From NCBI GenBank assembly GCA_034429675.1, contig DAOUFX010000230.1, positions 2,339 to 66,338 of the forward strand: 64,000 nucleotides of DNA, in the 5' to 3' direction. Positions 8,423 to 59,898 of the stretch are shown piece by piece. The notes below the pieces were generated by a model. It searched no databases and had not been told where the DNA came from. It was given only the letters and a program-made list of their open reading frames with translations. How positions within the stretch are numbered: position 1 is the stretch's first letter; each line of letters starts with the position of its first letter. Origin of the DNA: Anaerolineae bacterium. Lineage in GTDB: Bacteria; Chloroflexota; Anaerolineae; B4-G1; SLSP01. The translations under genes and the position numbers were made by a program.

Positions 8423-8436
8423 AGGCAGTAGCTTTC

Positions 8437-13814: not shown

Positions 13815-13853
13815 TCAGCCACACAAGACTATCAAAATTTAGAGGCGTTAAGT

Positions 13854-16612: not shown

Positions 16613-16651
16613 TTTGATTGGCCTGGCGTATACCCTTTTGGGGAGGCTGGT

Positions 16652-20213: not shown

Positions 20214-20227
20214 AGGGAGACAGGGTC

Positions 20228-23068: not shown

Positions 23069-23082
23069 ATACGGGGCGTGGT

Positions 23083-28541: not shown

Positions 28542-28546
28542 AGACT

Positions 28547-33711: not shown

Positions 33712-33725
33712 AAGGGAGAGACCAG

Positions 33726-35444: not shown

Positions 35445-35458
35445 ACGAGGCAGAGTTT

Positions 35459-38708: not shown

Positions 38709-38711
38709 AGT

Positions 38712-43400: not shown

Positions 43401-45024
43401 TCTGGAGGATACGGCGGCGCTCTATCGCGCCAGCCAGGCCATTAACACGGCGACTTCCCCTGATGAGATTGCGCACGCGTTGATTGTAGGCCTGCATCTG
43501 CCGGAAGTTTACCGGGTCACATTGAACCTGTTTGAGCATCCCTGGTTGCCGGAGAATTTGCCGGAACAGATTGAAACGGTTGCGATATGGGATAAGCGTG
43601 TGGAGGACGGCGAAATTCAACCTACAGGATCCGGTCAACGTTTTGAATTGCGTCAGTACCCGGCGGCGCATTTGTTTACGCCCGATGTTCCTCTGGTCTT
43701 TTCTGACATCACCACCGATTCCCGAATGGATGGGTTTTCTCGCGCATTGTTTCGCGATGTCTTTGGCGCGCGCGGCGCCGCTTTTCTGCCTATGGTCATC
43801 AGTGGACAATGCATTGGCTTTATCAGCGTTATGACGCACAGTGGAGCGGTCTTTGACGAACGCCGCTTGCGCCGGTTGACGGCGTTATCCAGCCAGGCTG
43901 CCGCTGCCATTCAGAGTATGCGTTTGCTCAAGTCGGCGCAGGATCGCGCGCGTCGTGAGCGTGCCTTGCGTGAGATAGCGCTGGCGGTCGGCGCCAGCGA
44001 GACTATCACTGGATTGCTTAATGAATTGCCGTTGATTGTGGCCCCCTTGCGTCAGTTGGTGCCGGTGGATTCTCTCGTGTTGACTACCCATACACCGGGT
44101 GAGACGGAACTGACGCTTTTTGCTATTCTGGCCGAGGCGACGACGGGACGTTACACCCAGGGGATGCGCTTACCTCTGGAAGGGACTGCCACCGCCTGGG
44201 TGATTGAGCACGACGAACCCTGGATAGATGTTGATATTCGCGAGAATCCTGCCTTTACGCAGGATCAACGCTTGTCGGATGAGCGGTTTGTGTCGCGGGC
44301 GACATTGCCGTTGCACTTTGGCGATCAAGTGGTGGGGACTCTCATCATTGGTTGCCAGCAGGTCGGGGCGTATACCCAAGAGGATGTGTCCGTTTTGCAG
44401 CGTGTCGCCGATCAATTGGCCCAGGCGTTGGAGCGCACACGCTTGTTGGAGACCACTCGCGCCGCTCGCGACGAAGTCACCGCAGTTCACCGTAGTTACT
44501 TGCGGCAGGGATGGCAGGAGTATCTGGAAAAGGAGCGGCAGTTGAGCCAGGCCACTTTCGTGTACGATGGAGGGAATGTCACCGTGCAGCGTGATTTTTC
44601 TCGCCCGGAAATTGAGCAATCGCTGAAGACCGGGGAAGCGGTGACCCAGGCCAGCGTATCGTCGCAGACTGAGGAATCACAACGCACGGCCCTGGCTGTC
44701 CCGATTGAGGTTCGCGGTCAGGTTTTGGGGGTGTTGGGGCTTGAGGACCCCGAGGGAAAGTGGCATTGTAATGCCGAGCAGCTGATGCTGATTCAGGCGG
44801 TGGCGCAGCAGTTGGGTCAAGTTCTTGAAAACTCCCGGTTGATTGAGGCGACGCAAAATCAGGCCGAACGCGAGCGTTTGGTGGATGAAGTGTCGTCGCG
44901 GGTGCGCGCTTCTCTGGAGTTGGATACAGTTTTGCGCACGGCAGTGGCTGAGTTACGCGATGCGTTGCAACTGGCCGAAATTGAGGTGCGCATCGGCGCC
45001 GAGACTTTGTCTCAAAGAAGGTAA
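40471..45024 (+). CDS. GAF-array member L: ~1518-aa cytoplasmic multi-PAS (5–6 PAS/PAC) + multi-GAF protein with the conserved tail; no output domain
   Basis: The start is set at ATG 40471, with GGAGAGGGAGAAGAG upstream and a 14-nt overlap with the previous gene; the track ORF begins at 40444. PAS blocks include SADWLWETDVVGRYVYSSARVTDILGYTADEVVGKT, NPNFVFVRDREGRFVLANQAIADAYG, GIGWATLDGTMVYVNPMMCRML, NDAILLENEKELIVDVNQRACELFGYTRDEL, TPDHIYFKDVENRFVRVNRSMAEW and TVVIYIKDLQGRYLLVNRRYETLF. GAF blocks include FGYYHAQIFRYD...LPKTQGELAVPIRLRDEILGILDVQS. The tail is RERLVDEVSSRVRASLELDTVLRTAVAELRDALQLAEIEVRI. Confidence 0.85.
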   Translation: MRHNKTSSRRTGDARRPLAGIVPGPSAPEANPLFSEAESRFADMAALSADWLWETDVVGRYVYSSARVTDILGYTADEVVGKTLFDLLPAEEASRLRDTLGEVMVARHPIENLVHQKIAKDGRSVWVQTQARPVFAADGGLLGYRGVDRDITAQRQTEEAQRQLREQEAFLRQVLDINPNFVFVRDREGRFVLANQAIADAYGTTVDGLIGKTDADFTLSGADVEAIRRSDLGVMESLKEKFIPESHIAYGGAHPRWVQTIKRPLVDEDGVARRVLGVSSDITERKLMQQAIEASLERRGRQVQTSTEIAQEIAGIAALDELFRKVVTLVKERFGYYHAQIFRYDAATQAMRLVVGYGDTGQAMLEAGHYLPMGRGVVGTAAETGRPVMASDVSQDSDWIPNKFLPKTQGELAVPIRLRDEILGILDVQSETAGALTGEDQLLLEGLCGQIAIAMESTQLLEFTGAFRQVIEASGQGIGWATLDGTMVYVNPMMCRMLNVPDSSALVGRLSQSFYPPEVQRRLAEEILPAVLQEGQWQGELPLLCSDGKVIPTLANIFIIRDKEGTPLYFANQIADITARKQVEVSLLHSEQRYRVLFEQANDAILLENEKELIVDVNQRACELFGYTRDELLTMKTSDLQPPSTSSLPIYSDPGMPTNIFELKASKRDGTPLYIEVHITPLEIGGESLFLSIVRDITGRRQTELALEQERYLLNSLMENTPDHIYFKDVENRFVRVNRSMAEWLQLSSPEEAVGKTDFDFFSEEHARQAFDDEKILMETGQSLIGLEEKETWQDGHVTWVSTTKLPMYDRQGVASGTFGISRDITESRQAQEQLRETQRLLQGILDNTTVVIYIKDLQGRYLLVNRRYETLFSVKQPDIVGKTFREVFANLEFAGLGVETETVLESGQSLEQIETIRREDAVHTYLSLKFPLCADDGAPYAIGCISTDITERESAETERKRLLSDLESHAKQLEVALEDTAALYRASQAINTATSPDEIAHALIVGLHLPEVYRVTLNLFEHPWLPENLPEQIETVAIWDKRVEDGEIQPTGSGQRFELRQYPAAHLFTPDVPLVFSDITTDSRMDGFSRALFRDVFGARGAAFLPMVISGQCIGFISVMTHSGAVFDERRLRRLTALSSQAAAAIQSMRLLKSAQDRARRERALREIALAVGASETITGLLNELPLIVAPLRQLVPVDSLVLTTHTPGETELTLFAILAEATTGRYTQGMRLPLEGTATAWVIEHDEPWIDVDIRENPAFTQDQRLSDERFVSRATLPLHFGDQVVGTLIIGCQQVGAYTQEDVSVLQRVADQLAQALERTRLLETTRAARDEVTAVHRSYLRQGWQEYLEKERQLSQATFVYDGGNVTVQRDFSRPEIEQSLKTGEAVTQASVSSQTEESQRTALAVPIEVRGQVLGVLGLEDPEGKWHCNAEQLMLIQAVAQQLGQVLENSRLIEATQNQAERERLVDEVSSRVRASLELDTVLRTAVAELRDALQLAEIEVRIGAETLSQRR

Positions 45025-45027
45025 TGT

Positions 45028-46806
45028 ATGAAAAGGAGATGGAATAGCCTGGTTTTGAAGATTGGAGTCGCCATCGTCCTGGTTGAGGCGGTGGCGCTTG
45101 CAATCGTTGGCGCCATTTATGTTGATCAAGTTTCGGGCGCCCTGGATGGCGCTTTCGAAAGCCGAATTCAGGTTCCGGCTACACTGATGGATAGACAGTT
45201 GTTGTCTTATGATATGGCTGGGGATCGCGACCTTTTGGAATCGCTGGTCGGCGATCGAGTTTTGCGAAGTTTTATGGTGGACATCAATGGGCAGGTACTT
45301 TTTACATACGCTGATGACTATTTGGGACAACCCTTATCCGACGTGCCCGGCATTGAGGCGCCCGACCGGTTTGACCCGACTCAGGTGCAATTGATCAAAG
45401 TATCCGACGCTGTTATCATTGTTTCTCCACTGAGCTCCGGTCCGCAACGTCAAGTTTTGGGATATTTGTATCTTAAGGTAGCAACTACGCAGTTGCGTCA
45501 GCAAAAGGCCGTCGTTGCATCCATCTTTGGCATAGGGTCTGTGGTTGCGGTGGTGACGACATCGGGGCTGTTGATTTACCTGCTGAACTCACTGGTCTTG
45601 ACGCGCATCGGATCTTTGTTGGGGGTTTCACGGCAAGTGCTTGCCGGAGATTTGACGGCGCGGTTGAGCGGGACATTTTCATCCGACGAGATTGGTGTTT
45701 TGCAGAGTGACATCAATGCCATGGTGGTGCAGTTGGAAGACACCGTCCGCACTTTGGAGTCACGTGTAACCGAGCGCACTTCTGATTTGGAACGCCGGTC
45801 ACGCCAGCTTCAAGTCGTGACCAAAGTCGGAAGCGCTATTGTTTCGATCCGCGAATTCGATACCTTGTTGGCCGAAGTTACCCGGTTGATCAGCGATCAA
45901 TTCGGATTTTATCATGTAGGAATCTTCTTGTTGGATGCATCCGGCAAACGTGCGGTGTTGCGTGCGGCAAATAGTGAGGGTGGGCAGCGTATGCTGGCCC
46001 GTGGCCATACCCTGGAGGTCGGCGGCGTAGGCATCGTGGGATATGTGTCTCGTGAACATCAACCGCGTATTGCGGCGGATGTTGGCGAAGATGCCGTCTA
46101 TTTCGATAACCCGGATTTGCCTGAAACGCGATCAGAGATGGCGTTGCCGTTACTTGCGGGCGGGCGTTTGCTGGGAGTGCTGGATATTCAAAGTAAGGAA
46201 GAGGTTGCCTTCTCTCAGGAAGACGTAGAGACGTTGCGTGGTTTAGCCGATCAGGTAGCGGTTGCTCTCGATAATGCGCGTTTGCTAGGAGAGATTCAGG
46301 CGGCCATCGAAGCGCAACAGCGCGCGTATGGTGAGATCAGCCGCCGGGCGTGGGAGGAACTGTCACGTTCGGAAATTTTAGCCTATCATAGTGAATCTAG
46401 CGGTGACGTTGCGCCACTTGCTGACGAATGGCCGCCCGAAATGATCCAGGCCAAGCAGGAAGGTCATATTGTGCAGATGGACGACTTTACGGTGGCTGTG
46501 CCGGTCAAATTGCGCGGCGAGACGGCGATCGGGGTTGTGAAGCTGCGCCGGCCTGATGACGCTGGGATATGGACACCTCAACAATTGGCATTATTGGAGA
46601 CTTTGAGCGACCGGTTGGGGCAGGCGTTAGAGAGCGCGCGTTTTTACCGGGATTCGCAGCGCGTTGCTTCACGGGAGCAGACCTTACGCGAAATTGTGGA
46701 GCAGGTGCGCGGCGTAGTAGATGTGGATTCGGTTATGCGTACCGCTGTGCGCGAAGTTGGACAGGCGCTCGGTCGTGAGGTTTTTATTTACCTGACGGAG
46801 GAATGA
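45028..46806 (+). CDS. GAF-array member M: TM + extracytoplasmic sensor domain (~150 aa) + TM + HAMP + S-helix + GAF-A + GAF-B + tail; no output domain
   Basis: TM helices are IGVAIVLVEAVALAIVGAIYV and VVASIFGIGSVVAVVTTSGLLIYLL. The HAMP domain is LTRIGSLLGVSRQVLAGDLTARL...EIGVLQSDINAMVVQL. The S-helix is LESRVTERTSDLERRSRQLQVVTKV. GAF-A runs FGFYHVGIFLLDASGKRAVLRAANSEGGQRMLARGHTLEVGGVGIVGYV...PDLPETRSEMALPLLAGGRLLGVLDIQS. The tail is REQTLREIVEQVRGVVDVDSVMRTAVREVGQALGREVFIYL. Confidence 0.85.
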   Translation: MKRRWNSLVLKIGVAIVLVEAVALAIVGAIYVDQVSGALDGAFESRIQVPATLMDRQLLSYDMAGDRDLLESLVGDRVLRSFMVDINGQVLFTYADDYLGQPLSDVPGIEAPDRFDPTQVQLIKVSDAVIIVSPLSSGPQRQVLGYLYLKVATTQLRQQKAVVASIFGIGSVVAVVTTSGLLIYLLNSLVLTRIGSLLGVSRQVLAGDLTARLSGTFSSDEIGVLQSDINAMVVQLEDTVRTLESRVTERTSDLERRSRQLQVVTKVGSAIVSIREFDTLLAEVTRLISDQFGFYHVGIFLLDASGKRAVLRAANSEGGQRMLARGHTLEVGGVGIVGYVSREHQPRIAADVGEDAVYFDNPDLPETRSEMALPLLAGGRLLGVLDIQSKEEVAFSQEDVETLRGLADQVAVALDNARLLGEIQAAIEAQQRAYGEISRRAWEELSRSEILAYHSESSGDVAPLADEWPPEMIQAKQEGHIVQMDDFTVAVPVKLRGETAIGVVKLRRPDDAGIWTPQQLALLETLSDRLGQALESARFYRDSQRVASREQTLREIVEQVRGVVDVDSVMRTAVREVGQALGREVFIYLTEE

Positions 46807-47005
46807 GTTATCGTTTCAATAAAGGTGGGGATTTGGGGGCGGGCGCAGCCCACCCCCCCAGATTTTGAGAAGATACTGAGCATATATCTTTGATTTGACT
46901 TTGTTGGCTATCTGAGCAACGATAGGGTAGAATATGGTAAGGTTATAGAGAAATCTTTTCTCATAACCCCGGACAAAGAGAGACATTTGAGGTAGAGGTG
47001 ATGTT
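46807..47005 (+). promoter_or_regulatory. 199-bp low-GC intergenic region, the largest gap inside the array; probable internal promoter/regulatory region for the downstream cassette
   Basis: GC content drops here. The region contains TTGACT (about 46896) and TAGAAT (about 46929) hexamers, though their spacing is not canonical. An imperfect hairpin GGTTATAGAGAAATCTTTTCTCATAACC at ~46945..46972 lies just upstream of the GAGGTAGAGGTGA ribosome-binding site of gene 47006. Confidence 0.35.
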
Positions 47006-47587
47006 ATGACACAGATTTTTGGTAACTATGTCGAACCGTCCGATGACATCGAACATTTGGTGATCCATTTTTCGCCAACGGCGATCCCTTTACAGCAACG
47101 CTGGCGCAACAATGGGTTGTCGGCGGACTTCCTGGCGGAATATTGGACGACTTTCTTCCCAACGTCCGATACACTTTTCGAAAGCCGTCGAAAAGCGATG
47201 AAGGGCGCGGTTGCTTACATTGCCAATGAGTTGTTGGAAAACATTATGAAATTCAACTACAACCCGGCGCAGTGCGCGGTCAACCTGGGGTTATATTTGC
47301 ATAAAGACGAATTACGTTTTTATACATCCAATGCCATTATCCCCGAGAACTACACCTCGTTTCGTGAGCGCATTCGACAATTGTTGACCGAAGACCCAGA
47401 AGAGTTGTACATTCGCCAGATCGAACAGAATGCTCTGAATGTGGATAAAGGTGGATCGTGCCTGGGACTATTGACAATGATTCACGATTATGAAGCCCAA
47501 CTGGCCTGGAAATTTGAGGATGTGCAATGCGGTACAGCCTCTTCGGAACTGGTGCTTGTCTATACTTTAGTGCGGTTGAATATTTGA
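47006..47587 (+). CDS. GHKL-fold (anti-sigma-factor/RsbW/SiaB/slr1658-like) putative partner-switching pseudo-kinase, copy 1
   Basis: A strong ribosome-binding site is present. An N-box-like IANELLENIMKF fits E-x-x-x-N-x-x-x-[H/F] with Phe at the usual His position. A G2-box-like segment is KGGSCLGLLTM. No G1 box (DxGxG) is recognisable. The product is 193 aa. It is immediately followed by a STAS-like gene, the classic partner-switching pair arrangement. Confidence 0.5.
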   Translation: MTQIFGNYVEPSDDIEHLVIHFSPTAIPLQQRWRNNGLSADFLAEYWTTFFPTSDTLFESRRKAMKGAVAYIANELLENIMKFNYNPAQCAVNLGLYLHKDELRFYTSNAIIPENYTSFRERIRQLLTEDPEELYIRQIEQNALNVDKGGSCLGLLTMIHDYEAQLAWKFEDVQCGTASSELVLVYTLVRLNI

Positions 47588-47601
47588 GGAGGATTGAGGC
47601 T

Positions 47602-47952
47602 ATGAAACAGGTACAGGGTGAGGATTACAGTATTTCCTATGATGATTCTACTGCCACGATTGTGTTTCGGGGACAGATGCGTTTACAAGGAACCGCAGAG
47701 TATGCCAGCATTGAGGAATTACTGGAAGAAGTTTTGACTACCAGTTCCAAGTTAATTTCATTGGATATGTGCGACCTGGAGTTCCTGAACAGCTCCGGTA
47801 TTAATGTGATCTTGAAATTTGCCTTCAAAGTACGGGACTTGCCGATGCGATTTTCTTTATTGTTGCGTGCTAATTCGCAGGTCATGTGGCAATCCCGTAT
47901 GTTGAGCAACTTGCAGCGTTTGATGCCCAATGTGAAGGTGCAATACAACTAG
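47602..47952 (+). CDS. STAS-fold / SiaC (DUF1987, slr1659)-like anti-sigma-antagonist-type protein, copy 1
   Basis: ATG 47602 has GAGGAGGA 7 nt upstream; the track ORF starts earlier at 47527 and overlaps the previous gene. The core LISLDMCDLEFLNSSGINVILKFAFKV matches the STAS/SiaC motif (L-D-[LM]-x-x-L-x-[FY]-[LI]-N-[ST]-S-[SG]-I). The candidate phospho-acceptor is the Ser/Ser pair in LNSSGIN. Confidence 0.55.
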   Translation: MKQVQGEDYSISYDDSTATIVFRGQMRLQGTAEYASIEELLEEVLTTSSKLISLDMCDLEFLNSSGINVILKFAFKVRDLPMRFSLLLRANSQVMWQSRMLSNLQRLMPNVKVQYN

Positions 47953-47988
47953 GCGGTAAAGGGTGCACCATAGTGAAAGAAGGCGATT

Positions 47989-48567
47989 ATGACTGAAATC
48001 TATGGAGATTTTAGGGAGCCTGAAGATGTGGGCGAGTACCTGATTATCCGTTTTTCGCCTAGTTCCATTCCATTGAAGCAACGTTGGCGCAATAATGGGT
48101 TGTCAGCAGACTTTTTGGCCGAGTATTGGGCGACTTTTTTTCCCGCTTATGATATTGCCTCACAGCAACGACAAGCGGAGATCAAGAATGCTATTGATTA
48201 TGTCGCCAATGAGTTGTTGGAGAATATCATGAAGTTTAGCTATTCTCCTTCCAATTACCCTGTAGACATCGGCCTGTATTTATTTGAGGATGAGTTCCGC
48301 TTTTATGCGCGCAATCCGATAGACCCGGTGAGTCTGCAGGGGTTTCGTGAGCTTATTCAGAAATTGCTGGTAGCGGATCCGCTGGAACTTTATCTTCAGC
48401 AAATTGAACATAATGCTGTTTCTGAAGATGGGAATGTCTCGCAGTTGGGTCTGTTGACCATGATGACCGACTACAATGCGACATTGGCCTGGAAATTTGA
48501 ATCGCTTGAGCCGTCTCCCGGAATGGAGATTTTGATTGTGACAACGATGGTGAGTCTATCTTTGTAG
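47989..48567 (+). CDS. GHKL-fold SiaB/slr1658-like putative partner-switching pseudo-kinase, copy 2 (paralogue of 47006..47587)
   Basis: It is collinear with copy 1: PSSIPLKQRWRNNGLSADFLAEYWATFFP versus PTAIPLQQRWRNNGLSADFLAEYWTTFFP. The N-box-like segment is VANELLENIMKFSY and the G2-like segment is SQLGLLTMM. Confidence 0.5.
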   Translation: MTEIYGDFREPEDVGEYLIIRFSPSSIPLKQRWRNNGLSADFLAEYWATFFPAYDIASQQRQAEIKNAIDYVANELLENIMKFSYSPSNYPVDIGLYLFEDEFRFYARNPIDPVSLQGFRELIQKLLVADPLELYLQQIEHNAVSEDGNVSQLGLLTMMTDYNATLAWKFESLEPSPGMEILIVTTMVSLSL

Positions 48568-48608
48568 ATGTCAGATGTTTATTGAAAGCTGAGTGAGGAG
48601 TGCCCATA

Positions 48609-48953
48609 ATGAAAATCGAAGATGAAAATTATGAAGTGACTTATGATCAAGAAACAATGACCATAGTTTTTCATGGAACTTTGCGTCTACGCGGGGTAGC
48701 CGAATACGAGCCCATTACGCATTTGCTGGACGATGTGATCGCCCAGACGCCGGAGAAAGTGACCCTTGATTTGCGCGATCTGCATTTTCTCAACAGTTCT
48801 GGTATCAATATCCTGTTCCGATTTGTGATCAATATGCGTGAAAAGGCAACCACCGTTGTGGTAGTGCGGGGAGCTTCCGAGATTCCATGGCAGACGAAAT
48901 CGTTGAAGAATTTGCAACGGCTGATGCCCGCTTTGCAGTTGGAGTTTGATTGA
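48609..48953 (+). CDS. STAS-fold / SiaC (DUF1987)-like protein, copy 2 (paralogue of 47602..47952)
   Basis: ATG 48609 has GAGGAG 8 nt upstream; the track uses GTG 48600. The core is VTLDLRDLHFLNSSGINILFRFVINM. It is collinear with copy 1 (YEVTYDQETMTIVFHGTLRLRGVAEYEPI versus YSISYDDSTATIVFRGQMRLQGTAEYASI). Confidence 0.55.
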   Translation: MKIEDENYEVTYDQETMTIVFHGTLRLRGVAEYEPITHLLDDVIAQTPEKVTLDLRDLHFLNSSGINILFRFVINMREKATTVVVVRGASEIPWQTKSLKNLQRLMPALQLEFD

Positions 48954-48965
48954 GTTTGGAGGAAC

Positions 48966-49607
48966 ATGGAGCAAGAAGAACCTACCCTTGAGGCTTTGTT
49001 GTCCGAGATTGCTGCTCTGCGTCAGGAAGTCGCCACTTTGCAACAGGAGAGGGACGACATTCAAACCATTATGGATATAACCGTCGAACATTCCGATGGT
49101 GTGACGGCAGAAATGGAGGAGCGCCTGCGGATGATGGAAATGCTGCAGCGAGCGCAGACGCGCGAGGGTTGGGATATTTTGCGGGCGCGACGTGCGGGAT
49201 TGTGGGGGTATGCTTTTGATCGTCAGAAGGTGCGGCGATTGACATCGCTGCCTGCCCCTGATTCGGAAACCCACATGCTTCCGATGGTGATACAGCAAGA
49301 TAAGGTGGGGATGATCGGGGTTCGGGATGACGCGCAACATCCGTTGACTGCGGAAGAGCGAGCTCTGTTGACTTCTCTCTCTGAGCAAATTGCCGCTGCT
49401 CTCGATCGCGCGCGTTTGTTCGAGGTTACTCGTCGCAACGCGGCGCGCGATCAGATTATCAGTGAAATCAGCGCTCAAATGCGGGCATCTTTGGACATTG
49501 ATACAATCTTGCAAACAACGGTCCGTGAAATCGCGGAAGCTCTCAATATTGCACGGGTGGAAGTGCGCCTGGGCAGCGATGAGGATGGAATCGAAGTCGG
49601 ATCTTGA
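48966..49607 (+). CDS. minimal GAF-array member R (213 aa): coiled coil + GAF-B + conserved tail only, with no sensor domain and no GAF-A
   Basis: GGAGGAA lies 6 nt before the ATG. The coiled coil is LEALLSEIAALRQEVATLQQERDDIQ. GAF-B runs MLPMVIQQDKVGMIGVRDDAQHPLTAEERALLTSLSEQIAAALDRARLFE. The tail is RDQIISEISAQMRASLDIDTILQTTVREIAEALNIARVEVRL. Confidence 0.75.
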   Translation: MEQEEPTLEALLSEIAALRQEVATLQQERDDIQTIMDITVEHSDGVTAEMEERLRMMEMLQRAQTREGWDILRARRAGLWGYAFDRQKVRRLTSLPAPDSETHMLPMVIQQDKVGMIGVRDDAQHPLTAEERALLTSLSEQIAAALDRARLFEVTRRNAARDQIISEISAQMRASLDIDTILQTTVREIAEALNIARVEVRLGSDEDGIEVGS

Positions 49608-49624
49608 GTGGCTGAGGTGCGCCC

Positions 49625-51979
49625 ATGGCTGAGAAACAAAAGCTAAATGTGTCCGGTGAAGAAGTCGTTTCTGCTACCCCCGGTGGAATGTCCGCGCAGG
49701 GCAGTTATCGGTGGAAAGGCAGGTGGCTTTCGATCCGTACCCGTTTGGTCGGTTCCTTTGTAATATTGGTGCTTCTGGCGACGTTAGCCGTTGGAATTAC
49801 ATCGGTGGTGTTCGGCTGGCAGAACGGACGGCAGCGGGTTAATGAACGGCTTGAATTTGAGGTGAGATTAAAGGAATCCGAAATCAACGCCTGGCTGGAC
49901 AGACTGGAGACCAATCTCGAAGCATCGGCCTCTGATCAGGATATTACCGATCTTGCCGATTTTCTTTTGCTGCGTTATGCGGAATTTCCGAATGACGCGG
50001 ACTTGACGCCGAAAAACATCCCGGTGGATATGCGCACCAGTCTGAAGTCGCGGATGCAGATGCATATTAACCAAACTCAACTCTTCAACTATTTGGCCGT
50101 GGTGGATGTATTAGGACGGGTGGTGGTGACGACGGATGTATTGCCGGAAGGCTTAATTCCTAACATCTTATCTTCTGTGGATCCGAAGTTACAATCAGCC
50201 ACGACTACACTCTTTCTCTCTAATGATCCTCAAGTGATTGTGGTGATCCCCGTTTTTGGCGCCGCTTCGGTCCTTGACAACGTGACGTCGCTCCCTTTGG
50301 GGTACATGATCGGCGGTGTTGATTTGAATCCGCTCAATTCAATCATGTTCGATAAATCTGGTCTGGGCGACACCGGCGACATCTATCTTGTTGGCGAGAA
50401 CCGTGTCGCTCTTACAGAATTGCGTTTTGGGGTGCAGGGGCAACTGATGCAAACGTCCGCGGTAGATCGGGCATTTTCTACCAGGAAAAGTGGATCAAGT
50501 GGTTACCGCAATGACCGGAATGAATCGGTGGTGGGTGTTTATTATTGGTTACCTCGATTGAACGCGGTTTTGTTGGCCGAGCAGGCGCGCGCAGAAGCCT
50601 TTGGAGCGATTTACGCAACGCTGATTTTGAATATTGTGATTACTGTGGTTGCTGTAATGTTAGCAGTGGTGGCTGCTTCGTTTATTACGCGCAGCATTGT
50701 GAATCCGTTGGCGCATCTGTCTGAGACTGCGCGGCAGGTCGCCGCCGGGCGGCTTGATCATGTCGCCCGGGTCAATTCTCAGGATGAAGTCGGCCAGCTT
50801 GCTCAGACATTCAATTTGATGACAGAACAGTTGCGCGAACTGTTTGCTAATCTGGAACAGCGTGTTGTTGAACGCACCCATGATTTGGAGCGCCGTTCTG
50901 CGTATTTGGAAGCCTCGGCTGAGGTGGCGCGTGCAGCTTCTTCGATCCTTTCTGTGGATGATCTTATTCAACAAGTTGTTGAACTTATTCGATCACGGTT
51001 TTCCTTTTACTATGTCGGTTTGTTTCTGGTGGAGGGCGATTGGGCTGTTTTGCGCGCCGGCACCGGCGATGCGGGGCGGGCGATGTTGTCCCGGCATCAC
51101 CGTATTCGGGTAGGAGAAGGAATGATCGGATGGAGTATCGCTAATCTGCAACCTCGAATCGCCTCACGGGCGGAGGCCGATGCAGTTCGTGTGGTTAACC
51201 CTGAGTTGCCGGACACCCGCTCCGAAGTGGCATTGCCGCTGCGTTCCCGTGGACAGGTTTTGGGCGCATTGAGTGTGCAGAGTACACGTCCCGATGCATT
51301 TGATGAAGATGTGCTCACGACATTGCAGATTATGGCGGATCAGGTCGCCGTGGCGTTGAATAATGCCAGTTTGTTTGCCGCTTCTCAGGAAGCATTGGAA
51401 GCGGAACGGCGTGAGTATGGTGAACGCACTCGACAAAGTTGGGCCGATTTGTTGCGGACGCGCAAATCATGGGGTTATGTCTATGAGCGTGCTCCCGATC
51501 CTGAAATCGCGTCAGCGACGTTGGTGGAGGCGCAAGGTAAGTGGAGCGCTGAACTACGGGAGGTCAAGCGGTCCGGTCATCATATTCAGAATATTGTGTC
51601 CAATATGCGGCGTTTGTCCGTCCCGATATGGGTGGGGAGTGATGTGATTGGAGCGCTGTCTTTTGACCGCAGTGAATCCGATGTGCCCTGGACAGATGAA
51701 GAGGTTCTGTTGCTTGAGACGTTGACGGATCAGTTGGGACAAACCCTGGAACGGGCTCAGTTGTATTGGAATACTCAGCGACGCGCGGCGCGTGAACAGT
51801 TGACGCGCGAAATTACCGACACCATGCGGCGTACGCTGAATTGGGATGATTTGATGCAAGCGGCGATTCGTGAGGTGGGCGGTGTGTTGGAGGCATCCCG
51901 CGCCTTCGTCCAGTGGACGCCTGCCGGGATGATGGCGCCAGGCACAGACCGCCTACACCCGGTTGAGGACCAGGAATGA
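49625..51979 (+). CDS. GAF-array member S: TM + Cache-like periplasmic domain + TM + HAMP + S-helix + GAF-A + GAF-B + tail; no output domain
   Basis: TM helices are LVGSFVILVLLATLAVGITSVVF and IYATLILNIVITVVAVMLAVVAASFI. The HAMP domain is RSIVNPLAHLSETARQVAAGRLDHV...EVGQLAQTFNLMTEQL. The S-helix is LEQRVVERTHDLERRSAYLEASAEV. GAF-A runs FSFYYVGLFLVEGDWAVLRAGTGDAGRAMLSRHHRIRVGEGMIGWSI...PELPDTRSEVALPLRSRGQVLGALSVQS. The tail is REQLTREITDTMRRTLNWDDLMQAAIREVGGVLEASRAFVQW. Confidence 0.85.
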   Translation: MAEKQKLNVSGEEVVSATPGGMSAQGSYRWKGRWLSIRTRLVGSFVILVLLATLAVGITSVVFGWQNGRQRVNERLEFEVRLKESEINAWLDRLETNLEASASDQDITDLADFLLLRYAEFPNDADLTPKNIPVDMRTSLKSRMQMHINQTQLFNYLAVVDVLGRVVVTTDVLPEGLIPNILSSVDPKLQSATTTLFLSNDPQVIVVIPVFGAASVLDNVTSLPLGYMIGGVDLNPLNSIMFDKSGLGDTGDIYLVGENRVALTELRFGVQGQLMQTSAVDRAFSTRKSGSSGYRNDRNESVVGVYYWLPRLNAVLLAEQARAEAFGAIYATLILNIVITVVAVMLAVVAASFITRSIVNPLAHLSETARQVAAGRLDHVARVNSQDEVGQLAQTFNLMTEQLRELFANLEQRVVERTHDLERRSAYLEASAEVARAASSILSVDDLIQQVVELIRSRFSFYYVGLFLVEGDWAVLRAGTGDAGRAMLSRHHRIRVGEGMIGWSIANLQPRIASRAEADAVRVVNPELPDTRSEVALPLRSRGQVLGALSVQSTRPDAFDEDVLTTLQIMADQVAVALNNASLFAASQEALEAERREYGERTRQSWADLLRTRKSWGYVYERAPDPEIASATLVEAQGKWSAELREVKRSGHHIQNIVSNMRRLSVPIWVGSDVIGALSFDRSESDVPWTDEEVLLLETLTDQLGQTLERAQLYWNTQRRAAREQLTREITDTMRRTLNWDDLMQAAIREVGGVLEASRAFVQWTPAGMMAPGTDRLHPVEDQE

Positions 51980-52055
51980 AGGCAACTGAAACGCTTATGT
52001 CAGGGGACCGCCAGCGGATTACCGCGATTATTTTGGGCATGGATAGGTGTCGTTG

Positions 52056-54761
52056 ATGGAAAAAGAGAGCAACTTGCCGCTGCAATCTGAAGATGAAGCT
52101 TTGTTGATTCAGTTAAAACGAGACGCTTCGTTTGCTCGTTTATCTTTGCTGACGGCTGCATCATGTTTTGCGGTAGCGGGTGTGCATTTCCTCGCCGCCT
52201 GGTACCTGTCCCTTTGGCAATATTGGGTCACCGGCGCTTTGACAGTTTTAGCCGGAGGGGGATACCTTTGGATTCGCCATTTGGTTCCCTCTCATCGTTT
52301 TACTTTGACTAGAACGCTGGCCTGGCTCATTCCATTCTTGTTGTTCCCGCCGATGGCTTTCTTCTGGTCTCATGCTACAGTGCCATTGATCATATCTGTT
52401 TCTTCCGTGCAGATTTTTCTGGGGGTCTTGTTGTACGGACGTAAGCGGATGCCCCTGGCTTTTGCGCAAGCGGTTGTCGGCGTTGTTCTGGTGCTCGTGA
52501 TAAACGCCTTTCCTCTATGGCCGCGCCATGATGTGACAACGACCTGGCTGTCACGTCTTATTTTGGGGATTGTTCCGGCCGGCGCGTTTCTCGTCATTTT
52601 GATGACATTGATTCGGGGTTTGCGACGTTTTAGGACCATTCGCTCCCGTTTGACGGTGGCGTTTGTGGTAGCGGTTCTACTGGGAGCCGGCATCGTCATT
52701 TTGGGTTCTGTCACACTTACCTGGCAGAGTATGATTGGACAGGCCTATGCGCGATTGGGCACCGTTTTGTCGCTTAAAGAAGAATCGCTGAATGCCTGGA
52801 TGAAGAATTTGCTGCTGGACCTGGATGTCATTGTGACTGATGAGCGTGAAGTGGAGCGTATACAGGTGCTTTTGTCTGAAACAGGTTCAGAGTCATTGGT
52901 TTATGAGAAGCGGCAGGATTTGCGCGCGCGCCTCAACCAATTGATTGACCAGGTGCAGCGTTTCGATGTGCTATTTTTGATGGATCCCGCCGGCAAAGTG
53001 GTGCTCTCGTCCGATCCGACGCAAGAGGGGGTGCTTTTTACTGACGAAACTTCTTTCCAGGAGGGTTTACGCGGGCCCTACATTTCTCCACCGATTTATT
53101 CACCTTCGGCAGAAAGAGCCGCCATTTTTGTGACCCGGCCTTTGACCGATAGGGATGGAAATCTGCTAGGAGTTTTTGGGGGGCGCGCCAATATCGCCAG
53201 CCTGGATGACACCATCGCGGGCGTTACTTCATTGGATCAAAGCAGCGAGGTTTATCTGGTGGGGGCCAATCATGCGCGATTGACTGATTCGGATGGAGGG
53301 ACGGGCGACTACCTTCAAAGTCCGGGTATTGACGCCGTGTTGCGCGATCAGAATCTCGGTCAGGGCATGTATAAAGGCTACCGGGGCAATCAGGTAGTGG
53401 GTGTGTATAAATGGATACCTGAATTACAGGTAGCGCTGTTGGTCGAGATGGACCGCGCGAAGGCTTTTCAGGGAGTCCAACAGGTGATATTGCTCAATGT
53501 TATTTTGGCTGTGGTTGCTACCGGATTTGCTGTTGTTATTGCGACTTTCTTTACGCAGGATATATCTTCCGCTTTGACATATCTTTCGGAGATGGCGGTG
53601 CGCATTGCCAGAGGGGAACACGGACTTGTTGCCAGAGTGGATCGTGAGGATGAGATCGGTGTGTTGGCGCAAGCTTTCAACAGTATGACCGGGCAAATGC
53701 GCGACTTGATCGGTGGATTGGAACGTCGCGTGGAGGAACGCACGCAAAGTTTGGAGGCTGTGGCTGAGGTTTCGCGCGCGACGACCTCGGTGCTCGATCC
53801 TGATAAATTGTTGCCTCAAGTAGTTACTCTAGTCCGAGAACGGTTCAATTTGTATTATGTGGGTTTGTTTTTGGTCAATGAAACCGGCGATCAAGCTGTT
53901 TTGCGCGCGGGCACCGGGGAAGCCGGGCGGCAGATGATAGAGCATACCTGGCAACTTGAGATCGGCGGCGAGTCTATGATTGGGCAATGTGTCGCCACCG
54001 GGCGTCCGGGTGTTCGCCAGACAGAGGGCGATATCGTAGTGCGTTTTGAGAATCCGTTCCTGCCGTTGACACGCTCGGAATTGGCGCTCCCTCTACGGTA
54101 CGGGACTCAGGTTATTGGGGCGATGACCGTACAAAGTGTGCAGGAATCGGCCTTTGACAAGACTTCCATTGCCCTGCTGCAAAACATGGCTGACCAGGTC
54201 GCGGTCGCGGTAGAAAATGCGCGGCTCTTTACGACAACCCAGAAGGCTCTGGCGCGGGCGTATGATGTGCAACGACGGTATCAGGCGCAGGCGTGGGAGG
54301 ACTACATGAGCGCGCGTCCGACGACCGGATACGAGTTGCAGGCGAATGAACTGCGACCTTTGACCGAAGAGTTGTTGCCGGATGTTCGCCAGATGCTGCG
54401 CGATCGTCGCCCTTTCGTAGAGGGCGGGAAGCTGATCGTCCCAATTTTTCAGGATGATCGCATTGTAGGCGTTTTAGGATTTGAGGGACGAGCGGGGCAA
54501 ACTGAGTGGGGTGCGGAGGAGATTGCCATGGTCCAGTCTCTTTCCGAACAATTGCTGTTGGCCGCCGAAAATCAGCGCTTGTTGGATCAAACGCAACGCA
54601 GCGCGGCGCGCGAACGAACGATCAGTGAGGTCACCGGTCGTGTGCGTCAGGCATTGGATGTGCAGGGTGTGTTAAGAACGGCTGCCGATGAGCTCCAACA
54701 GGTGCTAAGTCTTGAACGGGTTGTGGTGCGGATGGTGCCTCAGGACGAGTCGGAGCCATGA
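52056..54761 (+). CDS. GAF-array member T: ~6-TM membrane domain + Cache-like + TM + HAMP + S-helix + GAF-A + GAF-B + tail; no output domain
   Basis: The start is set at ATG 52056 (MEKESN...); the track begins at GTG 52047. The HAMP domain is ISSALTYLSEMAVRIARGEHGLV...EIGVLAQAFNSMTGQM. The S-helix is LERRVEERTQSLEAVAEV. GAF-A runs FNLYYVGLFLVNETGDQAVLRAGTGEAGRQMIEHTWQLEIGGESMIGQCV...PFLPLTRSELALPLRYGTQVIGAMTVQS. The tail is RERTISEVTGRVRQALDVQGVLRTAADELQQVLSLERVVVRM. Confidence 0.85.
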   Translation: MEKESNLPLQSEDEALLIQLKRDASFARLSLLTAASCFAVAGVHFLAAWYLSLWQYWVTGALTVLAGGGYLWIRHLVPSHRFTLTRTLAWLIPFLLFPPMAFFWSHATVPLIISVSSVQIFLGVLLYGRKRMPLAFAQAVVGVVLVLVINAFPLWPRHDVTTTWLSRLILGIVPAGAFLVILMTLIRGLRRFRTIRSRLTVAFVVAVLLGAGIVILGSVTLTWQSMIGQAYARLGTVLSLKEESLNAWMKNLLLDLDVIVTDEREVERIQVLLSETGSESLVYEKRQDLRARLNQLIDQVQRFDVLFLMDPAGKVVLSSDPTQEGVLFTDETSFQEGLRGPYISPPIYSPSAERAAIFVTRPLTDRDGNLLGVFGGRANIASLDDTIAGVTSLDQSSEVYLVGANHARLTDSDGGTGDYLQSPGIDAVLRDQNLGQGMYKGYRGNQVVGVYKWIPELQVALLVEMDRAKAFQGVQQVILLNVILAVVATGFAVVIATFFTQDISSALTYLSEMAVRIARGEHGLVARVDREDEIGVLAQAFNSMTGQMRDLIGGLERRVEERTQSLEAVAEVSRATTSVLDPDKLLPQVVTLVRERFNLYYVGLFLVNETGDQAVLRAGTGEAGRQMIEHTWQLEIGGESMIGQCVATGRPGVRQTEGDIVVRFENPFLPLTRSELALPLRYGTQVIGAMTVQSVQESAFDKTSIALLQNMADQVAVAVENARLFTTTQKALARAYDVQRRYQAQAWEDYMSARPTTGYELQANELRPLTEELLPDVRQMLRDRRPFVEGGKLIVPIFQDDRIVGVLGFEGRAGQTEWGAEEIAMVQSLSEQLLLAAENQRLLDQTQRSAARERTISEVTGRVRQALDVQGVLRTAADELQQVLSLERVVVRMVPQDESEP

Positions 54762-54787
54762 GCGCTTTAGACTAGGGAGTCAGGTAT

Positions 54788-56506
54788 ATGGAGAGTCAAA
54801 AGTTGCGACCTGGTAATGCATCACGAGAGGAAACGTCCCTGGAACTGACGACCTTGCAGCGCTCTTTTATGCAAGTTCTACTCAGGATTATAACCATAAC
54901 TGTTCCTGTCTCGTTGGGAATATCTGCATACGCTGCATGGAATGTGGGGCAAAAGGCGCTTACCTTCGTTTTGGGAGCGATTTACGTTGTGCTTTTGGTT
55001 TGTTACTTTTGGCAGAGCGCTGCTTTCCGTTTACGGACATGGGTGTTATTAGGGCTATTGGCAGCAAATGCTTTTATCACTTTGGCGAGAGGCGAACCTA
55101 ACGGAACTGCGCGAATGTTCTTGATTCTCATTCCCTTTCTGGCCCGGCTATTTTTGAACCGTAGGGATGGGATTGTGAGCATTGCCTTATGTCTGGTGCT
55201 GGATGGTCTGGCGGGGTTTCTACTCGATATCGGCGTTTTACCGCCTCCTATGGGGAGAGGGGACTTTGATATTCGCATGTGGCTGCTGCCGGGGACGCTG
55301 GTGTTGTTTACTGTGGATGTTCTGATTGTGATCGGCGTGGACTACTTTCTGCAAAACTTTGACGTTCTGTTGAACCGTAGCCGTTTGTTAGCCGACGACC
55401 TGAAATCACAGCGAGCGCATTTGGAAGCGCAGGTCAATGAGCGCACGACGACGATAGCTCGGCGTGCCAAGTATCTGGAGGCGACTGCCAAGATTGCGCG
55501 TGGAGCTTCTATTTCCCTGGATAATCCTGAGATGTTGTATGCGCACCTGGTGAATTTGATCGCCGAGCAACTGGGCTTCTCCAATGTCTCGTTATTTTTG
55601 GTGGATTCAAGCAACGAGTGGGTTGACTTGCGTGCTGCCTCCAGTGATGCCGGGAAGCACTTATTGGAACAAGGGCATCGTTTGCGTGTGGGAGGACAGG
55701 GTTTGGTGGGCTATGCCGCCGATCGGGGTGAAGTCAGAGTGGTGTCAGATGTGCTTGCAGATGTTCTGTTCAAGGCTCACGGGGTTTTGCCGACGACTCG
55801 CTCCGAAGTCGCTTTGCCGTTGCGTGTGGCCGATGCGATTATCGGCGTGCTGGATGTTCAGAGTGTAGACCCGCACGCTTTCAGTGAGGAAGACGTTGCC
55901 GTTTTACAATCGTTGGCCGATGAGGTTGCCGTGGCGGTAAGCAATGTACGTTTGTTCCAGCAACTACAGGAAAGTATTCAGGCCGAACGCCGTGCGCGCG
56001 GTGAGTCGTCGTTTGACGCCTGGCGCGAACAGCTTCAGGTACAAAGTGGTTTGGGGTTTGTGAAGCAGAGAAATGTTATGACCCTATCCGGCGATTTTTG
56101 GCAACAAGAGATGGCTTCGGCGGTGAAGTCGGGGCGCCCGGCATTGTCCCTCGCCGACCCGCGCACTCTGGCGGTGCCGATCAAAGCGGGTGGGCATGTT
56201 GTGGCCGTGATTGATGCGCGGCTCCCCGATGCGTTTAGTAAGTGGCAACCTGAGCAGATTTCTCTGTTAGAGGCTCTTTCCGATGAATTGGGTGAGGCGT
56301 TGGAGCGTGCGCGACTCTACGAGGAGACCCAACGCCGCGCTACGCGCGAACAACTTTCACGCGAAGTGACCACTCGTGTTCGTGAATCTCTGGATATTGA
56401 GACGATTCTGTTGACGGCAGTGAATGAGATTGGTAGCCGTTTGGGGGTAGAGACTGAGGTGTGGATGGGGATGGATCTGGCGTCTGATGAACATGCCGGC
56501 GGTTAG
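54788..56506 (+). CDS. GAF-array member U: polytopic membrane N-domain + S-helix + GAF-A + GAF-B + tail; no output domain
   Basis: There are ~6 TM helices. The S-helix is LEAQVNERTTTIARRAKYLEATAKIAR. GAF-A runs LGFSNVSLFLVDSSNEWVDLRAASSDAGKHLLEQGHRLRVGGQGLVGYA...LPTTRSEVALPLRVADAIIGVLDVQS. The tail is REQLSREVTTRVRESLDIETILLTAVNEIGSRLGVETEVWM. Confidence 0.85.
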   Translation: MESQKLRPGNASREETSLELTTLQRSFMQVLLRIITITVPVSLGISAYAAWNVGQKALTFVLGAIYVVLLVCYFWQSAAFRLRTWVLLGLLAANAFITLARGEPNGTARMFLILIPFLARLFLNRRDGIVSIALCLVLDGLAGFLLDIGVLPPPMGRGDFDIRMWLLPGTLVLFTVDVLIVIGVDYFLQNFDVLLNRSRLLADDLKSQRAHLEAQVNERTTTIARRAKYLEATAKIARGASISLDNPEMLYAHLVNLIAEQLGFSNVSLFLVDSSNEWVDLRAASSDAGKHLLEQGHRLRVGGQGLVGYAADRGEVRVVSDVLADVLFKAHGVLPTTRSEVALPLRVADAIIGVLDVQSVDPHAFSEEDVAVLQSLADEVAVAVSNVRLFQQLQESIQAERRARGESSFDAWREQLQVQSGLGFVKQRNVMTLSGDFWQQEMASAVKSGRPALSLADPRTLAVPIKAGGHVVAVIDARLPDAFSKWQPEQISLLEALSDELGEALERARLYEETQRRATREQLSREVTTRVRESLDIETILLTAVNEIGSRLGVETEVWMGMDLASDEHAGG

Positions 56507-56528
56507 TGTGTTTGTGGAGAACGAGCGT

Positions 56529-56777
56529 ATGAAAAGATTTAAAGCATTTTTGCGACAGCCAGAACTGATGGCCTTGCTTTTTATCCTGGGGGGCCTTGCC
56601 TTTTTTTACCCGGTTCTATTGATGTTGGAAGCTGCGCCGCCACGAACCACGATGCTTGCTGTCTATCTCCCTTGGGGTTTGATCACACTGGCGTTGATTT
56701 TTATTGGACGCGCCAGCTTCGCGGACTCCTCTTCTCCGGAAGCTACGTCGCAGGATGAAGGGGGGCGTGATGGCTAA
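56529..56777 (+). CDS. small 2-TM membrane protein, DUF4212-like (sodium:solute symporter-associated small subunit)
   Basis: ATG 56529 has GGAGAA 8 nt upstream; the track begins at 56487 and overlaps the previous gene. The 82-aa product has two TM helices (LMALLFILGGLAFFYPVLLML and LAVYLPWGLITLALIFIG). Its stop overlaps the downstream SSS-family start by 8 nt, the typical pairing of the DUF4212 small subunit with an SSS permease. Confidence 0.55.
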   Translation: MKRFKAFLRQPELMALLFILGGLAFFYPVLLMLEAAPPRTTMLAVYLPWGLITLALIFIGRASFADSSSPEATSQDEGGRDG

Positions 56778-59700: not shown

Positions 59701-59898
59701 GTTTCTGCAAGGATGCGCGAGCCGTTGGAATTGGAAGATGTCTTGAAAACGGCTGCGGATCAGATGCGTGAAGCTCTCGGCCTGGAAGAACTGGTGGTGC
59801 GCCTGGCTACCGGTCAGACGCTGGCGCAGTGGGCCGGAGACACTGCTTCGGGAGAGCCGGAGACCGACGATTCACCGATGGGAGATCAAAGCTTATGA
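56770..59898 (+). CDS. GAF-array member W: sodium:solute symporter (SSS family, ~13 TM) fused to S-helix + GAF-A + GAF-B + tail; no enzymatic output domain
   Basis: ATG 56770 has GAAGGGGGG upstream; the track begins at 56704. The SSS N-terminus is VILAISAYIALMFVAALLVERG...YGGMVYALALTVYCTSWTFYGSVGSAATTGMRF with ~13 TM helices to aa ~560. The S-helix is LESRVAARTRALAMAAEV. GAF-A runs FDLYYVGLFLLDELREWAVLRAGTGAAGQMMLARGHRLKCDEGSMVGWCI...ELPDTHSEVAVPLRSRGQVLGAFTIQS. The tail is RERTIGQVSARMREPLELEDVLKTAADQMREALGLEELVVRL. Confidence 0.85.
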   Translation: MANPWGVILAISAYIALMFVAALLVERGVWKRQLTAYGGMVYALALTVYCTSWTFYGSVGSAATTGMRFVAVYLGPVLSVILWGSVLRRMVRIKNLYRITTIADFISARYAKSEALAVVATLLAVVGVLPYIALQLKAVTDSFAVITAADVAFSAWATGYIAPVVLVFMIAFTVLFGARRLDPTERHPGMVFALAVLGVVRLVAFLAVGIFVTYGLLGGFGQFFQTLETSSFAGLTDMAGGASGPLVWMTHILLSMSAILFLPRQFHMAVIENENEKHIGTAMWVLPLYMILITIFVLPIAAGGLLLGQSVTVADTFVLRLPMQYGPGWLTMLVFLGGLSASSAMVMLTSLAVSTMIANHLLLPLLMRIPSLGFLRRNLLPVRWGVIAIVLVLGYVFNARLGESYTLVNMGLISFAAVMQFAPVILGGLFWRRGSKVGALMGLIAGFAMWMYTLLIPSFVRSGWLSSSLLDNGPLGIGWLRPEQFLGLRGLDNLTHAVFWSLLLNVGLYVLGSLFFPQSQDEKVQADRFVDILAHKGVTFAAVYGHAQVSVVLKTDQLEQILNNYFFVSESRAMIARCLERVGLKDQRETTVNKLVEFYDEVERELAGSLGTAAAHRTIDRKSLFTAEESAELSRTYGEILADLQIAPDDLMKRIDYYRERENLLAEQASGLESRVAARTRALAMAAEVGRAAASILDPERLVKQVVELIRERFDLYYVGLFLLDELREWAVLRAGTGAAGQMMLARGHRLKCDEGSMVGWCIVNARARIALEAEKDEVRHVTAELPDTHSEVAVPLRSRGQVLGAFTIQSTQLNAFDEAAITVFQMVADQVAVALDNARLFADAQAAIETERRAYGEINRQAWKEMLRSRPELRYRRDARGAVHSTSGSPAQEIVRAVQTGDAVYSEAATLALPIRIRDNVVGALRFRKPETNEAWTPEEVTLLETLIEQLEGALERARLYDNTQRSAARERTIGQVSARMREPLELEDVLKTAADQMREALGLEELVVRLATGQTLAQWAGDTASGEPETDDSPMGDQSL

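Follow-up and report, generated by a model that had tools for sequence, protein, structure and literature searches.

The SiaABCD system of Pseudomonas aeruginosa consists of the PP2C phosphatase SiaA, the kinase SiaB, the STAS-like protein SiaC and the diguanylate cyclase SiaD. The coiled-coil stalk of SiaD carries conserved motifs to which SiaC binds unless T68 has been phosphorylated by SiaB (PMC8457831), with SiaA as the opposing PP2C phosphatase (PMC7647112). For the slr1658/slr1659 pair of Synechocystis sp. PCC 6803, disruption of slr1658 was reported to deregulate pgr5 about 1000-fold by a signalling chain that is not known (PMC6525291, PMC7555055), and the accessible papers on slr1658/slr1659 describe neither a mechanism nor an effector. 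We analysed a stretch of 64,000 nucleotides (nt) from an Anaerolineae bacterium (contig DAOUFX010000230.1 of assembly GCA_034429675.1), here called the window, in which two successive slr1658/slr1659-like gene pairs (the cassette) are followed by a small gene, termed R, in the middle of a long array of sensor genes. The initial annotation had suggested that R may be an adaptor linking the cassette to the full-length sensors or, alternatively, a dominant-negative or titrating subunit of the GAF-B/tail oligomerisation interface. By analogy to SiaD, we favour with moderate confidence that R would be the target (effector) of the partner switch, an array member with the switch as its input instead of a sensor. 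Partner switches of this kind are already known, whereas the variant with a non-enzymatic GAF output appears to be new.

Gene R and its N-terminal motif

R encodes a protein of 213 amino acids (aa), and its parts are listed below, with residue numbers referring to the protein.

48966..49607, + strand: gene R, 213 aa plus stop codon, ATG start (open reading frame (ORF) and sequence)
48957..48964, + strand: purine-rich TGGAGGAA, resembling a ribosome-binding site, in the 12-nt gap directly 5' of the ATG of R
48966..49106, + strand: switch-effector motif, residues 1-47, a heptad helix ending in DIQTIMDITVEHSDGV (hidden Markov model (HMM))
49107..49205, + strand: helical linker, residues 48-80 (EMEERLRMMEMLQRAQTREGW...), homologous to the linker ahead of GAF-B in array members
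49206..49349, + strand: reduced GAF-B core with four predicted strands, residues 81-128 (partial Pfam match, alignment, AlphaFold)
49350..49424, + strand: terminal GAF helix alpha5, residues 129-153 (TAEERALLTSLSEQIAAALDRARLF), among the two most conserved parts of R
49425..49574, + strand: tail, residues 154-203 (RDQIISEISAQMRASLDIDTILQTTVREIAEALNIARVEVRLG), the alpha1-alpha2-beta1 start of a further GAF that is not completed

The upstream slr1659-like STAS gene ends with a TGA at 48951..48953, 12 nt ahead of the ATG of R, and 17 nt separate the stop of R from the next gene (49625..51979). In 46500..50100, the region with the cassette and R, scans for promoters and terminators gave sites no more numerous than in shuffled sequence. 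Orthologues of R were found in five other Anaerolineae assemblies (loci L001, L092, L002, L006 and L093), the nearest named source being an Anaerolineae bacterium known as a metagenome-assembled genome; they have 210-215 aa and 58-87% identity (87, 81, 61 and 58%, the fifth being the 215-aa protein of L006). Comparison of the orthologues led to a ratio of non-synonymous to synonymous substitution rates (dN/dS) of 0.12-0.13, and the degree of conservation of R is about that of its neighbours. Divided by parts, the mean pairwise identity among the orthologues was 0.62 for the N-terminus, 0.52 for the sheet, 0.84 for alpha5 and 0.85 for the tail. R lies directly after the cassette in all six Anaerolineae assemblies with readable context, the window included. 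The cassette is duplicated in L001 and L092, single in L002, and single with a GAF-SpoIIE (PP2C) gene ahead of it in L006 and L093, and the length of R is kept at 210-215 aa throughout, down to 58% identity. Therefore, from the dN/dS, the retention of short orthologues and the STAS gene immediately upstream, R is a real gene under purifying selection and no pseudogene. As the DNA upstream of R is the STAS gene, it holds no disrupted remnant of GAF-A, which the initial annotation had named as an example of evidence for a truncated pseudogene. Since R adjoins the cassette in all six assemblies, those with a single cassette or a PP2C gene included, a functional tie between both is indicated. R shares the reading frame of the copy-2 STAS gene (48951..48968), from which it is separated by the TGA and four codons. 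Read-through of the stop codon to give a STAS-R fusion was considered and rejected, as the frames differ in L001 and L002, and the shared frame is probably a coincidence.

R is a chimera of a switch-effector module (residues 1-47) and the C-terminal module of the array (residues 48-213). The N-terminal coiled coil of the initial annotation is indeed present as a heptad helix, but it was not retained from the array family: residues 1-47 are a separate motif that marks effector genes downstream of slr1658/slr1659 cassettes. Species-representative genomes were scanned with an slr1658 alignment, 80 loci were kept, and the ORFs of the loci were searched with HMMs built from sequences of the window, L001 and L002 only. 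Among 83 loci in which the sequence continues downstream of the cassette, 71 have a gene that starts no more than 700 nt behind it and whose N-terminus matched the HMM of the first 62 residues of R, with E-values from 1e-7 to 2e-17 for independent effectors. No motif away from a cassette was detected among the 2260 ORFs of the cassette-seeded loci. Motif-bearing loci originate from Cyanobacteria, Chloroflexia, Anaerolineae, Deinococcota and Entotheonella. The association also holds in the reverse direction, as a metagenome scan seeded with the motif alone (6 sequences) led to nine confirmed loci, and in all eight for which upstream sequence is available an slr1659-like gene immediately precedes the motif-bearing gene (in L088 and L090 the STAS gene alone was detected there). 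The consensus is PSxExLLxExAxLRxEVxxLxxEKxDLExLLEMTTEHSDxVxxEL, of which R carries a somewhat divergent version (DIQTIMDITVEHSD), and R is the sole motif-bearing sequence in the six frames of the window. Its N-terminal helix keeps one heptad register with L, I, V or M at 13 of 20 a/d positions, and a PDB search with a profile of this part gave matches to both designed and natural coiled coils.

Behind the motif we found PAS-adenylate/guanylate cyclases (Microcoleus, Chloroflexia), PAS-HisKA-HATPase, PAS-STAS and GGDEF proteins, kinase-receiver-cyclase hybrids, HisKA-HATPase-receiver proteins (Deinococcota) and a PAS-ParA-like ATPase (Entotheonella). As these outputs vary, it is the motif and not the output that travels with the cassette, and because across many phyla this motif identifies the effector encoded behind such cassettes, R would likewise be the target of its switch. 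No model matching the motif is present in Pfam and NCBIfam, a protein search with the motif alignment gave only proteins of up to 118 aa, which are uninformative on architectures, and the searchable literature holds no account of the motif or of a GAF-type effector. The motif on the downstream gene is thus a testable candidate for how slr1658/slr1659 switches reach their targets in several phyla and, as slr1658 has a strong effect on the expression of photosynthetic genes in Synechocystis, gives an entry to an uncharacterized switch. In some effectors the DLExLLEMTTEHSD motif occurs twice in tandem (L011:7447-10179, L075:3723-5183 and L080:6990-7895), which recalls the two SiaC-binding motifs on the stalk of SiaD.

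The duplicated cassette and known partner switches

The four genes of the cassette precede R in the same orientation.

47006..47587, + strand: slr1658-like kinase/anti-sigma-like protein, copy 1, 193 aa (slr1658_cyano 218.6 bits, cut-off 200; slr1658_superfam 205.8 bits, cut-off 100)
47602..47952, + strand: slr1659-like STAS protein, copy 1 (slr1659_superfam 123.9 bits, cut-off 100)
47989..48567, + strand: slr1658-like protein, copy 2, 192 aa (slr1658_cyano 226.6 bits; slr1658_superfam 221.3 bits)
48600..48953, + strand: slr1659-like STAS protein, copy 2, directly 5' of R (slr1659_superfam 157.2 bits; Pfam STAS 26.9 bits, cut-off 22.6)

All four proteins pass the cut-offs of the NCBIfam superfamily models slr1658 (NF047703) or slr1659 (NF047705). 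The SiaB family kinase model (SiaB_fam_kinase, NF038262) led to 24.4 and 19.9 bits for the slr1658-like proteins, below its cut-off of 85, and the copy-2 STAS protein reached 18.7 bits with Pfam SiaC (PF09345), below 24.5. The duplicated kinase/STAS pairs of the initial annotation are thus confirmed, but they belong to the slr1658/slr1659 superfamilies and not to the SiaB and SiaC families proposed. The similarity of the slr1658-like proteins at the family level consists of a Pfam DUF6272 match (30.4 bits) and the distant SiaB match, and the slr1658 profile gave no match in the PDB. In the STAS proteins the sequence FLNSSGI is invariant in 12 sequences and aligns to the phospho-serine region of SpoIIAA (MDSSGL), and from the conserved serine of this (D/N)SSG motif they are predicted to be phosphorylatable. 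Copy 1 is the more diverged one, with 42.9% identity to the STAS protein of the single cassette in L002 compared to 57.5% for copy 2. Its longest ORF (47527..47952) has 61 nt in common with the kinase-like gene ahead of it; as orthologues start at M26 of this ORF, the start at 47602 is more likely. The guanine plus cytosine (G+C) content of the cassette genes (47006..48953) is 44-47%, compared to 53-60% for the array genes, with similar third-position G+C (0.51-0.56). The latter speaks for the amino-acid composition as the reason for the low value, which was therefore not taken as a clear sign of a foreign origin of the cassette.

In 60 of 77 loci, among them the R-bearing L006 and L093, a PP2C (SpoIIE) gene ends at most 400 nt upstream of the cassette. 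In L006 (4139-5959) and L093 (2230-4050) this is a 606-aa GAF-SpoIIE (PP2C) gene directly before the single cassette and R, whereas L001 and L092, the closest relatives of the window, have the duplicated kinase/STAS pair and no GAF-SpoIIE gene, as the window does. With the PP2C gene upstream and the motif gene downstream of the cassettes, the common unit is phosphatase, kinase, STAS protein and motif-bearing effector, the order of siaABCD. The likeness to SiaABCD comprises this gene order (in L006, L093 and the 60 of 77 loci), an effector opening with a long helical coiled coil, and a STAS-like protein with a conserved Ser/Thr at N(S/T)S. Unlike SiaD, R has no GGDEF or other enzymatic domain, and unlike the sia locus the window has a duplicated kinase/STAS pair, no phosphatase gene and cassette proteins below the SiaB and SiaC family cut-offs. 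With the slr1658/slr1659 pair of Synechocystis the window shares the superfamily assignment of all four cassette proteins, but the effector ends in GAF-B and tail inside a sensor array of the Anaerolineae and not in a cyanobacterium. From RsbV/RsbW and SpoIIAA/SpoIIAB the STAS antagonist with the (D/N)SSG serine, the paired small kinase-like protein and, in relatives, the PP2C are familiar, whereas the target here is no sigma factor. Direct binding of the effector by the STAS protein, as in the Sia type, would be as likely as its sequestration by the kinase.

The C-terminal module and the sensor array

The array (13413..63561) is uninterrupted, with all genes on the + strand from 13.4 kb to the window end, and the two kinase/STAS pairs followed by R sit in its middle. 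The genes at its head and the two conserved neighbours of the cassette and R are as follows.

13413..13814 and 13854..14273, + strand: single-domain receivers at the array head (Pfam)
14258..16612, + strand: HAMP-GAF-HisKA-HATPase histidine kinase at the array head (Pfam)
45028..46806, + strand: HAMP-GAF-GAF-B-tail protein, conserved neighbour directly before the cassette (Pfam)
49625..51979, + strand: dCache-HAMP-GAF-GAF-B-tail sensor, conserved neighbour directly after R (Pfam)

About 20 proteins of the array consist of a dCache, MASE11, periplasmic-binding-protein-like (PBP-like) or PAS sensor, followed by HAMP, GAF-A, GAF-B and tail, and Pfam found no recognised output domain in any of these sensors. 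The array kinase shares its HAMP-GAF-A part with them (E-values down to 2e-34) and has HisKA-HATPase in place of their GAF-B and tail. About 20 paralogues in the window have a C-terminal module that can be aligned with residues 60-207 of R (approximately), with E-values of 4e-7 to 4e-24 for the best stretch in phmmer searches against 18 clear members. Common features are the W-containing linker, the GY strand, the hairpin LxVPI...G..IGVL, alpha5 (W...E..LL..L..QL..ALE.ARL) and the tail (R.SLD.D.VL.TA..E...AL....V.VRL). An HMM of the tail alone gave 19 strong matches in the window, each at the very end of a protein, including R with an E-value of 1.2e-25. In the linker W69 is nearly invariant, and the linker belongs to the predicted helix 8-75. 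A Pfam scan of R detected no sensor, no HAMP and no complete GAF-A, only a partial GAF, with positions 54-129 of 129 of the GAF_3 model at residues 77-148 (E-value 9e-8). The gathering thresholds were passed narrowly, with 33 bits against 27 for GAF_3 (PF13492), 30 against 28.6 for GAF_2 (PF13185) and 26.8 against 22.4 for GAF (PF01590). A complete GAF would cover the full model and have pocket helices and a sheet of five to six strands, whereas R matches the C-terminal 60% and has four strands. A segment of about 25 aa ahead of the hairpin (PEMxxAxxxGxxV), present in all window paralogues, is missing from R alone. From the ORF, the Pfam scan and the alignment, R is thus the 213-aa minimal member without sensor and GAF-A that the initial annotation had seen; its GAF-B is shared with the paralogues, as stated there, but in a reduced four-stranded version lacking the PEMxxAxxxGxxV segment.

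The AlphaFold model of R, made with 25 aligned sequences, has a mean predicted local distance difference test score (pLDDT) of 83.8. It shows a helix at 8-75, strands at 81-85, 88-92, 102-109 and 112-120, a helix at 129-174 in which alpha5 runs straight into alpha1 of the tail, a further helix at 178-193 and coil at the end, with the final strand unpaired. Judged from the partial Pfam match and this model, the reduced GAF-B of R lacks the elements that normally make the ligand pocket. The model of the last 345 residues of the protein encoded by 45028..46806 gave a canonical GAF-A and a smaller GAF-B, followed, as in R, by a long terminal helix, a short helix and an unpaired final strand. Foldseek with R led to weak matches to phytochrome GAF/PHY modules, with E-values of 0.09 or worse. 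In a library of 1.84 billion representatives only one cluster at 50% identity matched R end to end; alpha5 and tail matched internal GAF-GAF junctions of multi-GAF proteins with 10-20 GAF stretches, and the tail is therefore read as the start of a GAF that was never finished. R thus resembles the junction of successive GAFs in tandem-GAF proteins (multi-GAF cyanobacterial proteins, GAF-PHY of phytochromes), whereas in R and its paralogues the chain breaks off once alpha1-alpha2-beta1 of a following GAF have been formed. The alternative of the tail being a degenerate histidine-kinase DHp helix was rejected, since thousands of multi-GAF proteins have internal GAF-GAF junctions to which the tail matches. 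In P0111, a 366-aa fragment of the representative library, a second hairpin-alpha5-tail unit without N-terminal GAF-B strands follows about 14 residues after one tail, which hints that hairpin, alpha5 and tail may be one structural unit. A closure of GAF-B by the tail in the way of a circular permutation, to which P0111 might point, is not supported by either AlphaFold monomer, in which the last strand of the tail remains unpaired and alpha5-alpha1 forms one straight helix.

Ends of the type found in R, with a short GAF-B and tail, also occur in other proteins. In P0006 and P0007 the tails are 68-72% identical to that of R, P0039 (L094:7795-10680, 961 aa) combines a PBP-like sensor and GAF-A with such an end, and P0028 (L095:8001-10304, 767 aa) a PBP-like sensor without GAF-A. 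In L095 (GCA_016931185.1) P0028 is flanked by orthologues of 45028..46806 (57% identity) and 49625..51979 (51%), and the slot between these has neither cassette nor motif. The orthologue of 49625..51979 follows R in L001, L092, L002 and L006, and in L095 it follows this PBP-type protein. P0028 and R are 57% identical over a BLASTP alignment of 180 residues, which spans residues 25-204 of R but has hardly any identities before residue 48, and the last 157 residues of P0028 align with R residues 48-204. From its position between orthologous flanks, the slot of cassette and R in the window is the one occupied in L095 by a sensor with the same module at its end. A different situation was found in L097 (5581-6534), where cassette and motif are both missing and a 177-aa R-like ORF is left that starts at the equivalent of R residue 57; ahead of it lie 420 nt of non-coding DNA with a tandem repeat of CATTCGT (about 10.9 copies, 5897-5972). 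This joint loss of cassette and motif with persistence of the R-like remainder supports R as a target of the switch. An origin of R by recent truncation of a neighbouring paralogue was rejected, as the best paralogue has about 40% identity over the shared module.

Possible roles of R and surroundings of the array

According to the effector reading, R occupies the SiaD-like gene position after an RsbW/SiaB-like kinase and a putatively phosphorylatable STAS protein. The slr1658-like kinase, and in relatives also the adjacent GAF-PP2C phosphatase, would set the phosphorylation state of the STAS protein, which in turn would decide whether the switch protein binds the N-terminal helix of R. Binding might alter the pairing or the conformation of R, similar to the action of SiaC on the coiled-coil stalk of SiaD, and R would then present its sensor-type GAF-B and tail end to whatever reads that module. 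In this chain we infer the physical binding, the switch protein that binds, its effect on R and the reader of the GAF-B/tail end. The adaptor proposed in the initial annotation comes close to this role, but R would more specifically be the target of the switch in the position of SiaD, with the C-terminal module of the array as its output.

Several points weigh against R as the effector. A PP2C phosphatase was not found in the six frames of the window, which has two cassette copies but one motif-bearing protein. Twelve cassette loci have no motif-bearing neighbour, and since closely related Microcoleus genomes account for many of the 83 loci, the independent lineages number closer to ten. At the sequence level no similarity between the motif and the SiaD stalk is detectable, the PDB profile matches being generic coiled coils, and as the cassette proteins stay below the SiaB and SiaC thresholds, the parallel to SiaABCD is an analogy. 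Moreover, the GAF-B/tail module is termed an output from its position alone. Two features of this position point to a transmitter: the module takes the place of HisKA-HATPase in the one histidine kinase of the array, and in R it takes the place that other switch effectors give to cyclase, kinase or GGDEF. Tentatively, GAF-B and tail could therefore be a transmitter module of an undescribed kind, with the approximately 20 output-less sensors and, through R, the switch converging on a common reader, and the TEHSD-type helix could be a portable socket that wires slr1658/slr1659 switches to any output. R suggests that a non-enzymatic GAF-B/tail module can fill the output position and provides a way into large Anaerolineae sensor arrays without recognisable output domains; being small (213 aa) and soluble-looking, it is a handle for the reader of the tail and for docking of the STAS protein.

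The dominant-negative or titrating subunit proposed in the initial annotation would form dead-end heterodimers with full-length sensors through alpha5 and the tail, or compete for a downstream partner, and thereby damp the array, with the switch perhaps setting the timing. R has the shared module with nothing upstream of it, alpha5 and tail are its most conserved parts (0.84-0.85 identity), and alpha5-alpha1 is one helix of about 45 residues in both AlphaFold models, all of which would suit such a subunit. In tandem-GAF and phytochrome structures the dimer spine is built from elements such as this long helix. However, the slot in L095 is filled by a full-length sensor of the signalling type with an R-type module, the motif is joined to active outputs (cyclase, kinase, GGDEF) in other genomes, and the tail of R, with 20-54% identity to paralogue tails compared to a mean of 34% among the paralogues themselves, mimics no particular neighbour. 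We found no direct support for this role and consider it rather unlikely.

A classical anti-sigma logic differs from the effector reading in the protein that contacts R: the slr1658-like kinase would hold the N-terminal helix of R and the unphosphorylated STAS protein would free R, as in RsbW/sigma-B/RsbV. In favour of it are the distant relationship of the slr1658 proteins to kinases of the SiaB type and the alignment of the STAS proteins with the anti-sigma-factor antagonists SpoIIAA and RsfB, and the neighbourhood data do not tell which cassette protein contacts the motif. On the other hand, SiaC-SiaD, the sole characterised relative with a coiled-coil effector, works by direct binding of the STAS-like protein, and upstream of the motif in the motif-seeded L088 and L090 the STAS gene was the sole cassette gene detected. 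Kinase sequestration of R appears quite improbable. A reading of R as what is left of a full-length array gene in decay, or as a chance neighbour of the cassette without joint function, is extremely improbable, for although R is the shortest array member and lacks a GAF-B segment, a motif-less R-like ORF of 177 aa exists in L097 and relatives with GAF-A fused to an R-type end are known (P0006, P0007 and P0039), the dN/dS of 0.12-0.13, the constant length in six assemblies, the conserved module instead of a GAF-A remnant at the N-terminus with the STAS gene directly upstream, and the place after the cassette, kept whether this is single, duplicated or accompanied by PP2C, all speak against it.

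Some further observations concern the array and its surroundings. In related arrays a gene for an NMT1-type substrate-binding protein lies between the sensors (L001:13043-14134, L092:5099-6154 and L002:16376-17341), and there is no such gene at the place in the window (51979-52047). For several genes of the array the longest ORF overlaps the preceding gene by 41-70 nt and has a TTG or GTG start (40444..40484, 59829..59898 and 61801..61847); their true starts are probably further downstream, an example being 40444..45024, of which the L001 orthologue aligns from its residue 10. The region 804..12675 is unrelated to the array and encodes a TPR-AAA+ ATPase, TPR proteins, RecJ, an NAD-dependent epimerase/dehydratase, an aromatic amino acid lyase and a large YfhO-like membrane protein. 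With the start of the array at 12-14 kb the G+C content falls from 58% to 48%.

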